From a phage: 64,000 nt of DNA. Shown in pieces: positions 40,230-42,791 of the stretch (the first letter of the stretch is position 1; the number at the start of each line of letters is the position of its first letter). The translations under genes were made by a program, and so were the position numbers. The stretch lies in sequence record PZ445554.1. One strand, given 5' to 3'. The notes below the pieces were generated by a model. It was not told the DNA's origin, did not search any database, and worked only from the letters and a program-made list of their open reading frames with translations.

Positions 40230-40406
40230 TTATACTCCGGATAGTTTGTAAACTATTTCAACATCGCCTTTTGCTGCTTTATAACCTTCAGCCCAAGATA
40301 CAACCGAGTTTTTATCTGAAGATTCAAATTCTGGCATTGGGCTTTCGCCAATGTTCACGCAGTATGTTTCTTCATTTTCGTCAAACCAAATAATTAAAGT
40401 AGTCAT
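40230..40406 (-). CDS. Small hypothetical protein (58 aa)
   Basis: Below track cut-off; ATG with GGAGA RBS. Confidence 0.4.
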   Translation of the reverse strand: MTTLIIWFDENEETYCVNIGESPMPEFESSDKNSVVSWAEGYKAAKGDVEIVYKLSGV

Positions 40407-40938: not shown

Positions 40939-40950
40939 AGATACCAAAAA

Positions 40951-40972
40951 GCCCCAACCTTTCGGTCGGGGC
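40951..40972 (-). terminator. Rho-independent terminator (GAAA tetraloop plus U-run)
   Basis: Minus strand GCCCCGACC-GAAA-GGUUGGGGC followed by UUUUUGG. Confidence 0.65.
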
Positions 40973-40979
40973 TAAGCCT

Positions 40980-41255
40980 TGCGGCAACCTTGTCGGGGTT
41001 CCACCTGCTAAGGCAAGTGTTTGTACGAAACGCCGGGACTTGAACCCGGTTATTAAGTAGTTGACGCTACTCAATATTTTTAAAAGGCCATATCTCGACC
41101 ATATCCGAACGTTCCGTCAAAAACGCTACTCGGCTTACGGCAAAGATATTTCCTCGAATCGATAATTCGGTGCGCCGTTTCTGCTGTGATGTAAGAGGGC
41201 ATCAATAAACGCAAAGATTATTAACGCAATTCCTTACTCAGGGAACATCAGTCCG
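40980..41255 (-). ncRNA. Putative small stable RNA region (tRNA-like T-arm motif), ending at twin terminators
   Basis: No convincing ORF; GGTTCAAGTCCCGG T-arm-like element on the minus strand; two consecutive hairpins follow; position next to the tRNA cluster. Confidence 0.3.
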
Positions 41256-41260
41256 ACGAC

Positions 41261-41815
41261 TTACCGGTAGCGACCCGGTTTCTCATTTGGTATTTCAAAT
41301 TGTGTAGATTTAGTATCTAATTTTTTAACTATGGAACTTATGTCATGAAAGAAAAACCATTCACCATTTATATGGTCCTGATTATAAATGCTGTGCATAT
41401 ATTTTTCAAGTTCTACTGCATCCTGGGAATATCTAAATGATACTATTTTAAAACTTTTAAACGGTGAAAATGTATTTGCTGTTATAACTCTAACATCAGG
41501 TTCTATACTTCTTCCTATTTTATAATAATTAGGATTTGTAGTATCTACCATTATGTATACGAAAGCCTGTCGATAGCTTTTTTCTATATCAAATTCATCT
41601 TTAAATTTCAAAAGATTTAGGGCGGCAGTCCTACAAAATACTTTCCATTTTGACAAGCGTTTGGCTTTAGTCATAGAAAAGAATTTTTTCTTATCTGTTA
41701 TTTTAAGAAAAGCAACATTTTCAATTAGTTCTTGTGTTATTTCAAAATTACCATGGTATATTAATCCAGCTTTTATAGCCAAATTAATTTGGTCCCAGTC
41801 TACATCACTTCTCAT
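41261..41815 (-). CDS. T5orf172-type (GIY-YIG-like fold) domain protein inside the tRNA cluster
   Basis: 184 aa; FVYIMVDTTNPNYYKIGRS...R...ELEKYMHSIYNQDHINGEWFFF matches the T5orf172/MUG113 domain pattern as I recall it. Confidence 0.55.
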   Translation of the reverse strand: MRSDVDWDQINLAIKAGLIYHGNFEITQELIENVAFLKITDKKKFFSMTKAKRLSKWKVFCRTAALNLLKFKDEFDIEKSYRQAFVYIMVDTTNPNYYKIGRSIEPDVRVITANTFSPFKSFKIVSFRYSQDAVELEKYMHSIYNQDHINGEWFFFHDISSIVKKLDTKSTQFEIPNEKPGRYR

Positions 41816-41836
41816 AATATTATTCTCTCAATAATT

Positions 41837-41913
41837 TGGCCAGGGTGAAAGGATTCTAACCTTTAACCTGCGGTTTAGAGGACCGCTACTCTATACAATT
41901 GAGTTACACCCCG
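41837..41913 (-). tRNA. tRNA-Arg (anticodon UCU)
   Basis: Clean cloverleaf on minus strand, anticodon loop CCUCUAA, encoded CCA. Confidence 0.8.
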
Positions 41914-42039
41914 TAATTAGTTCACAGCAATACCTACTCCAACAATCAAGATGTCTTCACACGAAATTAAGAGAAGAGTGATCAGTTCAACCCCTATAAT
42001 CGCGTCAAGTAGATATTAATGTGACAACTGTCACAAGTT

Positions 42040-42114
42040 TGGCGGACGTGATAGGATTCGAACCTATAACCAATCGCTTAACAGGCGATCGCTCTGCCAT
42101 TGAGCTACACATCC
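42040..42114 (-). tRNA. tRNA-Asn (anticodon GUU)
   Basis: Cloverleaf GGAUGUG...GUCCGCCA, anticodon loop CUGUUAA, T-loop UUCGAAU. Confidence 0.75.
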
Positions 42115-42118
42115 AAAT

Positions 42119-42205
42119 TGGTGGGGAGTGGTGGAGTCGAACCACCCGAGTCGCAATGACAATGAATTTACAGTCCACACCGCTACCTCTACGGGATAAC
42201 TCCCC
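42119..42205 (-). tRNA. tRNA-Tyr (anticodon GUA), long variable arm
   Basis: Type II tRNA, anticodon loop CUGUAAA, overall layout like bacterial tRNA-Tyr. Confidence 0.7.
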
Positions 42206-42218
42206 CTAATTCGTAATT

Positions 42219-42293
42219 TGGTGACCCTGGGTGGAATTGAACCACCATCTGGCGATTATGAGTCGCTTGCTTGAACCTTCCAGCTACAGGGCC
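42219..42293 (-). tRNA. tRNA with anticodon CAU (Ile2 or Met)
   Basis: Acceptor GGCCCUG/CAGGGUC, anticodon loop CUCAUAA, encoded CCA. Confidence 0.6.
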
Positions 42294-42294
42294 T

Positions 42295-42370
42295 TGGTGC
42301 TGATTGACGGAATCGAACCGCCGACGTCCTCATTACAAGTGAGGTGCTCTACCTACTGAGCTAAATCAGC
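42295..42370 (-). tRNA. tRNA-Thr (anticodon UGU)
   Basis: Acceptor GCUGAUU/AAUCAGC, anticodon loop CUUGUAA. Confidence 0.8.
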
Positions 42371-42375
42371 AAAAC

Positions 42376-42465
42376 TGGCGGAGGCGATAGGATTTGAACC
42401 TATGAGTCGCCGGAGCGACTGCCGGTTTTCAAGACCGGTGCATTAAACCACTCTGCCACGCCTCC
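42376..42465 (-). tRNA. tRNA-Ser (anticodon UGA), long variable arm
   Basis: Acceptor GGAGGCG/CGCCUCC, anticodon loop CUUGAAA, 17-nt variable arm. Confidence 0.8.
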
Positions 42466-42467
42466 AG

Positions 42468-42541
42468 TCTCCGTGGCAGGATTTGAACCTACGACATTCT
42501 GCTCCCAAAGCAGACGCTCTACCAAACTGAGCTACACGGAG
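42468..42541 (-). tRNA. tRNA-Pro (anticodon UGG), CCA not encoded
   Basis: Acceptor CUCCGUG/CACGGAG, anticodon loop UUUGGGA. Confidence 0.75.
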
Positions 42542-42551
42542 TAAATTAAAT

Positions 42552-42625
<74 letters not shown>

Positions 42626-42630
42626 AAATT

Positions 42631-42717
42631 TGGTGCGAGAAGTGGGACTCGAACCCACAAGGAAATCATTCCGCAGCATTTTAAGTGCTGTGCCTTTACC
42701 AATTTGACCATTCTCGC
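42631..42717 (-). tRNA. tRNA-Leu (anticodon UAA), long variable arm
   Basis: Acceptor GCGAGAA/UUCUCGC, anticodon loop CUUAAAA. Confidence 0.8.
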
Positions 42718-42718
42718 G

Positions 42719-42791
42719 CTGGGAATAAAGGACTCGAACCTTTGCATCCTGGAATCAAAATCCAGTGCCTTACCAACTTGGCTAATTCCCA
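42719..42791 (-). tRNA. tRNA-Gln (anticodon UUG), CCA not encoded
   Basis: Acceptor UGGGAAU/AUUCCCA, anticodon loop UUUUGAU; abuts tRNA-Leu. Confidence 0.75.

Follow-up and report, generated by a model that had tools for sequence, protein, structure and literature searches.

The stretch of DNA analysed here, which we call the window, comprises 64,000 nucleotides of phage sequence record PZ445554.1 and is a segment of a Tequatrovirus (T4-like) genome spanning e.5, the transfer RNA (tRNA) cluster, and trna.2. Within that cluster lies ORF184, an open reading frame (ORF) that encodes a nuclease-like protein of a small subfamily confined to phage tRNA arrays. It forms a mobile cassette with a divergent tRNA-Arg gene and is probably a homing endonuclease specific to tRNA arrays. 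An earlier reading of the letters alone (the sequence-only reading) had placed an ORF at 41261-41815, between tRNA-Arg and a probable small-RNA region. Both the ORF and its setting proved correct; the gene is on the minus strand, which that reading had left unstated, and the RNAs are the T4 stable RNAs rnaD and rnaC. The features of the locus, from high to low coordinates, are:

42040-42791, minus strand: upstream tRNA array, Gln to Asn, co-oriented, without tRNA-His and without segB
41914-41928, minus strand: 15-nt filler at the left junction of the cassette, gctgtgaactaatta; related phages have aatgt, tRNA-His, and atta there
41287-41913, minus strand: mobile cassette of 627 bp (tRNA-Arg-prime, spacer, and ORF codons 1-176), from the alignment of the window with VR26
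41837-41913, minus strand: the tRNA-Arg(UCU) of the cassette, here Arg-prime, found with ARAGORN 21 nt upstream of ORF184
41816-41836, minus strand: 21-nt spacer between Arg-prime and ORF184, in which GAGAG, 9 nt ahead of the ATG, forms a Shine-Dalgarno-like element; conserved in VR26 and ESCO10
41261-41815 (stop included), minus strand: ORF184, 184 codons with an ATG start; a protein of two domains, the N-terminal one family-specific and the other a T5orf172-type nuclease core
41570-41815, minus strand: N-terminal domain, residues 1-82, four helices with a conserved R-TAALNLLKFK motif
41351-41563, minus strand: T5orf172/MUG113 core, residues 85-155, GIY-YIG superfamily
41261-41287, minus strand: non-native C-terminal tail NEKPGRYR plus stop, from alignments with T4, VR26, and orthologues
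41169-41286, minus strand: rnaD (T4 species 2 stable RNA), 99.2% identical to the annotated T4 rnaD, its 5' end inside ORF184
41024-41162, minus strand: rnaC (T4 species 1 stable RNA), 98% identical to T4

The tRNA genes form a co-oriented array of ten, in the order Gln, Leu, Gly, Pro, Ser, Thr, Ile/Met(CAT), Tyr, Asn, Arg, and a terminator-like hairpin (40950-40973) follows rnaC. No Rfam family matched the downstream RNAs, and rnaC and rnaD were recognised through the T4 annotation only.

ORF184 is a real gene under purifying selection. PHROG 5032 (unknown function) matches it end to end (2e-59), phage UFV-AREG1 has an identical protein, annotated there as hypothetical, and a tblastn search recovered homologues in 278 phage records, mostly T5-like. 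The ratio of non-synonymous to synonymous substitution rates (dN/dS) was 0.13, 0.13, and 0.12 against orthologues with 95%, 92%, and 80% DNA identity, respectively, within an overall range of 0.10-0.15 that was alike in both halves of the gene. These ratios, together with the homologues in 278 records, show that ORF184 is not a chance ORF.

The domain assignment of the sequence-only reading, T5orf172/MUG113 behind an N-terminal extension of roughly 80 residues, was upheld by Pfam. Both models scored above their gathering cut-offs (MUG113, E 2.7e-9, 37.9 bits against 22.3; T5orf172, E 3.4e-6, 27.9 bits against 20) and covered residues 85/98-155, leaving some 84 residues ahead of the core. The canonical GIY-YIG model (PF01541) stayed below threshold on ORF184 (13.1 bits against 22.6), so that on sequence ORF184 is best assigned to GIY-YIG at the level of the superfamily only. 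The motifs quoted earlier were all found in the protein (FVYIMVD, YKIGRS, R109, VELEKYMH, and GEWFFFH). Y87 is invariant, and Y98-K99-I-G101, R109, E137, and E152-W153 are conserved to at least 90% where they are not invariant: across 59 homologues Y87, K99, G101, R109, P118, E137, and E152 do not vary, and across 75 representatives, whose identity averages about 23%, Y87 is still invariant and conservation of the other six motif residues is 90% or more. The closer relatives also keep H141.

An AlphaFold2 model built from the 59 homologues (mean pLDDT 94, pTM 0.89) begins with four helices (residues 7-74), after which comes an alpha/beta domain. The modelled C-terminal half is closest to the GIY-YIG nucleases Slx1, PD-T4-3, and I-TevI, and the predicted structure thus has the alpha/beta fold of GIY-YIG nucleases. 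A Foldseek search of the Protein Data Bank (PDB) with the model returned no significant match, a sequence search of the PDB gave chance matches only, and NCBIfam gave none. PADLOC yielded only weak matches to the core domain (PDC-S57, PD-Lambda-1) and no sign of a defence system. The T5orf172 domain is a proven DNA nuclease in the ICP1 protein Odn, where a Glu-to-Ala change inactivates it (PMC8263062), and T5orf172 genes have been argued to be homing endonuclease genes (PMC10448857). Taken together, the domain matches and conserved residues support the nuclease-like character proposed for ORF184.

The N-terminal domain defines the subfamily. It matches no Pfam family, contains a single Cys, and is conserved across T4-like and T5-like members. 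A profile of the domain found just 108 clusters among 1.84 billion representatives; nearly all the proteins in these clusters measure 160-190 amino acids (aa) and carry the domain N-terminally, and T5orf172/MUG113 was present in 72 of 75 of them. The few clusters, the near-uniform length, and the near-constant presence of the core therefore describe a small subfamily of fixed architecture, in which the N-terminal domain is presumed to be the target-recognition module.

All members whose loci were inspected sit in tRNA arrays. At each of 34 related loci encoding the N-terminal domain (7 annotated phage records, 4 further cassette loci from Mosigvirus and Dhakavirus, 19 IMG/VR loci, some of which duplicate the annotated phage records, and 4 metagenome contigs), the gene lies between co-oriented tRNA genes and on the tRNA strand. 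These loci cover T5-like, Klebsiella, Serratia, and Aeromonas-type phages as well as unclassified contigs. In the IMG/VR scan all 19 loci with the N-terminal domain were in tRNA arrays, and none of 31 loci encoding only the T5orf172 core had a tRNA gene within 1.5 kb. More distant members, on metagenome contigs of 39-96 kb, were again in dense tRNA arrays (four of four). The isotypes of the neighbouring tRNAs vary widely across the subfamily. Orthologues with 55-59% identity in T4-like phages of Klebsiella and Serratia occupy the same position after tRNA-Arg. Arrangements in individual phages are:

KpV477: order Arg-ORF-Thr
Serratia SP1: order Arg-ORF
RN29 and phiR2-01: ORF overlapping tRNA-Arg
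S114: ORF overlapping tRNA-Lys
T5: T5p067, the original 'ORF172' of 172 aa, between tRNA-Cys and tRNA-Asn

The stop codon of the gene lies inside or directly against the 5' end of the next tRNA in 11 distinct site types, with offsets of -39 to +4 nt (among them loci L006, L007, L011, L012, L021, L028, L030, L039, L072, and L074). Because the ORF ends inside rnaD in the window, and within the following tRNA in relatives, processing of the RNA at this point could remove the stop codon and so limit expression of the putative nuclease. Our literature search found no paper describing the association of this subfamily with tRNA arrays.

The anatomy of the insertion was reconstructed by aligning the window with T4, slur04, FriedrichZschokke, REP2, 236Ecol005PP, and VR26. 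The right-hand junction of the cassette is a microhomology heptamer, ATACCAA, identical to the last bases of the T4-type tRNA-Arg together with the one base that follows. Owing to this junction ORF184 has lost its native stop; its last eight codons and stop are templated by the last base after the CCA of the old tRNA-Arg and the first 26 nt of rnaD. Orthologues terminate in ...IPL or ...IPI at 177 aa. In the commonest related phages the position of the cassette is taken by tRNA-His and another tRNA-Arg. These two genes abut rnaD in FriedrichZschokke and are followed in slur04 by a 116-aa ORF (phrog_3355), an allele present in 278 records (L002 1942-2292). In VR20 a 79-aa ORF fills the slot after tRNA-Arg (L075 1595-1834). 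Aligning these empty and alternative alleles (tRNA-His and tRNA-Arg followed by nothing, by ORF116, or by the 79-aa ORF) revealed sporadic presence and absence of the cassette at an otherwise collinear locus. A further small ORF of 157 aa (phrog_2280; L002 1081-1554) lies after rnaC in slur04, REP2, UFV-AREG1, and teqskov and is absent from the window. ORF116 and ORF157 were considered as decayed nucleases and rejected, having no recognisable domains.

We found the cassette in 19 phage records representing about 15 distinct phages and four T-even genera, which amounts to some 2.6% of comparable records (19 against 720 with rnaC/rnaD). All 19 copies are intact. Nine Tequatroviruses of different species share the cassette at 98.6-99.8% identity (99.4-99.8% with TB004 set aside), and its flanks are mosaic and mostly 92-98% identical. 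These comparisons show the cassette to be younger than its flanks and to cross lineages. Beyond the Tequatroviruses, cassette identity was 95% and 94% in the Gapriverviruses VR26 and VR7, 92% in Dhakavirus ESCO10, which shares the read-through junction into rnaD, and 81% in Mosigvirus AV110 and ECO111 5-P; in all three of these genera the upstream neighbour is tRNA-Met. Two carriers are short of tRNA genes: teqskov lacks those for Thr, Ile, Tyr, and Asn (L064 4994-5366), and ESh27 (80%) has kept the ORF but not the linked tRNA-Arg, which was lost by deletion between direct repeats of 8 bp, CAATTTAT (L069 ~2027-2060). Comparative genomics of the tRNA locus, which the sequence-only reading had proposed as a check, thus revealed a patchy mobile cassette with its own tRNA-Arg. 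Relatives of Arg-prime with 80-90% identity serve as the resident tRNA-Arg of about 230 records without the ORF, VR20 among them. The likely history is that the ORF was inserted behind an Arg-prime-type tRNA in a phage resembling Gaprivervirus or Dhakavirus, and that tRNA and ORF then passed together into Tequatroviruses.

As a separate observation, the tRNA-Asn gene (42040-42114), about 130 bp upstream of the cassette, occurs as two alleles of 85% identity among cassette-bearing Tequatroviruses. Recombination breakpoints therefore fall within about 130 bp of the cassette.

The tRNA that travels with ORF184 is unusual. Arg-prime has C33 in place of the near-universal U33 (anticodon loop CCTCTAA), a T-loop that reads GGTTAGAATCC (A56), and a D-loop without GG. 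It nevertheless scores 59 bits on the Rfam tRNA model, and three fully compensatory stem changes (4-69, 10-25, and 49-65) separate it from the Mosigvirus Arg-prime; judged by its sequence, it is a credible tRNA. The odd elbow (A56, no GG) was rejected as a mark of the cassette; VR20 and SP21535, which have no ORF, share it, and the elbow features are therefore traits of the lineage. C33 is distributed differently. It is found in every ORF-linked Arg-prime allele, including the 80%-diverged lineage, is absent from VR20 and SP21535, and occurs in none of 119 other phage tRNA-Arg(UCU) genes from IMG/VR, all of which share the anticodon arm and have no copy of the ORF nearby. C33 may be a single ancestral change, though one that has persisted through a divergence of dS ~1.1. 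It is not universal in the family, since the Klebsiella and Serratia orthologues follow a tRNA-Arg with the normal U33. As regards protection of the donor allele, Arg-prime is only 57-58% identical to the resident tRNA-Arg of most Tequatroviruses (41% to that of T4) and alone carries C33. T5 offers a parallel: there the allele with ORF172 adjoins a tRNA-Asn that differs greatly from the one at a T5-like locus without the ORF, with homology resuming at the tRNA-Asn 3' end (L026 1370-2060 compared with L022 2945-3275).

A known nuclease gene of T-even tRNA clusters is segB, from which the sequence-only reading had distinguished ORF184. The alignments agree: neither BLASTP (E 0.59) nor hhalign (probability 0.2%) detected any similarity of ORF184 to T4 SegB, and the domain order is reversed, SegB having an N-terminal GIY-YIG and a C-terminal NUMOD, whereas the nuclease core of ORF184 is C-terminal. 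We therefore rejected an identification of ORF184 with SegB. The earlier suggestion that both occupy the same hot spot stands as regards the tRNA cluster and fails as regards the site, because segB lies between the Ile and Arg genes in T4, on the other side of tRNA-Arg from ORF184, which lies between tRNA-Arg and rnaD; in T4 these last two are directly adjacent. We found segB in 183 phage records. In other respects the two genes are alike. Both are free-standing members of the GIY-YIG superfamily, located in the T-even tRNA cluster and co-oriented with the tRNAs, and both have a patchy distribution tied to replacement of neighbouring tRNA genes. SegB recognises tRNA T-loop DNA and drives the inheritance of neighbouring tRNA genes (PMC2330249), and it stimulates amplification of the tRNA locus in T6 (PMC13096335). 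Cleavage and homing have been demonstrated for SegB; homing by ORF184 would be mechanistically analogous to that by SegB and evolutionarily unrelated to it. SegB requires a GGTTCRANTCC element (PMC2330249), which Arg-prime lacks by virtue of its A56 T-loop; the element is present in eight of the nine other tRNAs of the window (eight sites, 42054-42740) and in rnaC (41036-41046). The preferred cleavage site of SegB in T2L lies in tRNA-Asn.

A closer relative is T5 ORF172 (T5p067), the founding member of Pfam T5orf172, which is homologous to ORF184 over its full length, with 29% identity over residues 14-170. For this protein and its paralogues in T5-like phages, structural matches in BFVD had TM 0.68-0.74. 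The two proteins share both the arrangement of N-terminal domain and core and the niche between tRNA genes; they differ in that T5p067 belongs to a member of the Demerecviridae, has Cys and Asn as neighbours, and ends inside the downstream tRNA, while ORF184 belongs to the Straboviridae and ends inside rnaD. Site-specific endonucleases are also encoded in the T5 tRNA region (F-TflI, F-TflII, and F-TflIV), but these are HNH enzymes and thus of a different superfamily from ORF184.

The T5orf172 proteins of ICP1 (those of putative homing endonuclease genes, and Odn/Gp88) likewise combine an N-terminal specificity domain with a C-terminal T5orf172 core. Odn, however, uses RepA_N, whereas ORF184 has an unrelated helical domain with its single Cys. 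Among surveyed T5orf172 homing endonuclease genes, 87% use the Zn-finger domains CapR, DUF723, or DUF4397; their neighbourhoods include terminase, ribonucleotide reductase, and capsid genes and not tRNA arrays, and T4 itself has no T5orf172 genes (PMC10448857). We found none of these three Zn-finger domains in ORF184, given its one Cys, the absence of a Pfam match, and the four-helix model. Homing-type nucleases of the T5orf172/GIY-YIG kind are thus already known; what is distinctive here is the exclusive tie to tRNA arrays across phage families, the travel with a tRNA allele, and the cassette-specific C33.

We propose that ORF184 functions as a homing endonuclease, free-standing and specific to tRNA arrays, that carries a tRNA allele along with it, a reading to which we assign a probability of about 0.6. 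The proposed sequence of events is as follows: ORF184 would be expressed from the transcript of the tRNA operon, with which it is probably transcribed because it is co-oriented and the only terminator-like site comes after rnaC. The N-terminal four-helix domain would recognise the DNA of tRNA-gene arrays, and the T5orf172 domain would cut it. In mixed infections, cassette-less alleles would be cleaved, the replaced tRNA-His/tRNA-Arg segment being the candidate target. Recombinational repair from cassette-bearing genome copies would then bring in the ORF together with the linked, divergent tRNA-Arg(UCU), which presumably resists cleavage, and inheritance of the cassette would be biased as a result.

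Several observations weigh against this reconstruction. Free recombination among T-even phages can give a patchy, mosaic distribution without any nuclease, and the N-terminal domain has no recognisable DNA-binding fold. The alignment contained no consistent difference in rnaD between cassette-bearing and cassette-less phages that could serve as a signature of target or immunity; any target is therefore assumed to lie in the replaced segment. Finally, strong purifying selection and the lack of a single decayed copy in 19 records are unusual for a purely selfish homing gene, and would fit a gene beneficial to the phage equally well.

This last point leads to a different account of the same protein, in which a domesticated nuclease still cuts DNA but is kept for what it does for the phage, either by promoting recombination or amplification of the tRNA/anti-defence locus or by excluding the markers of competitors. 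The low dN/dS sustained over a dS of ~1.1, with every copy intact, would be expected of such a gene; SegB provides a precedent for the role (PMC13096335), and the retention of the 55-59% identical orthologues after tRNA-Arg in Klebsiella and Serratia phages looks stable. Points against a beneficial gene are the rarity of the cassette, the other small ORFs or nothing at all that the remaining phages have at the site, and ESh27, in which the ORF was retained and the tRNA lost; nor was amplification seen in any record. We regard domestication as unlikely, and it is in any case compatible with homing. Loss of catalysis altogether, leaving a DNA-binding protein that regulates the tRNA operon, would follow the example of CapR, a relative of T5orf172 homing endonucleases that was domesticated as a repressor (PMC10448857), and InterPro applies the name 'T5 Orf172 DNA-binding' to homologues of ORF184. 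Such a protein would not be expected to preserve its catalytic Tyr, Arg, and Glu, which here are conserved, without exception or to at least 90%, down to ~20% identity, and we consider this account very improbable. We give hardly any credence to an RNA-directed nuclease, working on tRNA or pre-tRNA, that would cleave the canonical tRNA-Arg(UCU) of the host or of rival phages, or process the transcript of the array, with the C33 tRNA as the resistant partner in a module of toxin and immune tRNA. The strict residence of the subfamily in tRNA arrays and on the tRNA strand, and the restriction of C33 to ORF-linked alleles (0 of 119 others), would suit it. We know of no GIY-YIG or T5orf172 enzyme that acts on RNA, however, and the activity would be unprecedented for the fold; moreover, the Klebsiella and Serratia orthologues adjoin a tRNA-Arg with normal U33, and the isotypes of the neighbours vary widely.

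If homing by ORF184 is correct, T4-like and T5-like tRNA arrays would host a second nuclease family unrelated to SegB, and several independent homing systems would have had a part in shaping the arrays. An anti-defence role is now recognised for phage tRNA clusters, which SegB demonstrably spreads and amplifies. The original, uncharacterised T5 ORF172 protein would gain a testable role, and the family would supply a naturally occurring nuclease whose DNA-recognition domain, directed at tRNA genes, may be of a new type. For 'immune' or defence-resistant tRNA alleles, the tRNA-Arg of the cassette, with its C33 and altered elbow, provides a test case. A bolder extension, possible in our view but doubtful, is that the whole family with this N-terminal domain and T5orf172 core, T5 ORF172 included, is a dedicated tRNA-array homing nuclease forming a two-gene module with an immune tRNA allele. 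The U33-to-C change would then be the mark of immunity, and the module would be a main vehicle by which variant tRNAs move between T4-like and T5-like phages, overwriting the residents. The variant tRNAs are potential decoys against host defences that cleave tRNAs. A still more radical form of this idea would have the nuclease act on the tRNA itself.

Some minor features of the region were also recorded. BLAST found no counterpart of T4 e.7 in the window; between e.6 and e.8 there is instead a 58-aa ORF (40230-40406), making this another variable spot. Inside ORF184, on the minus strand at 41381-41409 and ~95 nt upstream of rnaD, is a sigma-70-like promoter match (11/12; TTGAAA, 17 nt, TATAAT) that could serve rnaD and rnaC as a promoter separate from the tRNA operon; overall, promoter-like sites were no more numerous in the region than in shuffled sequence. 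Directly downstream of tRNA-Asn, in the 126-bp spacer between the Asn and Arg genes, is a perfect inverted repeat (TGTGACA-AC-TGTCACA, 42020-42035). It is also conserved in cassette-less phages and may act as a hairpin for RNA processing or as a site for protein binding.

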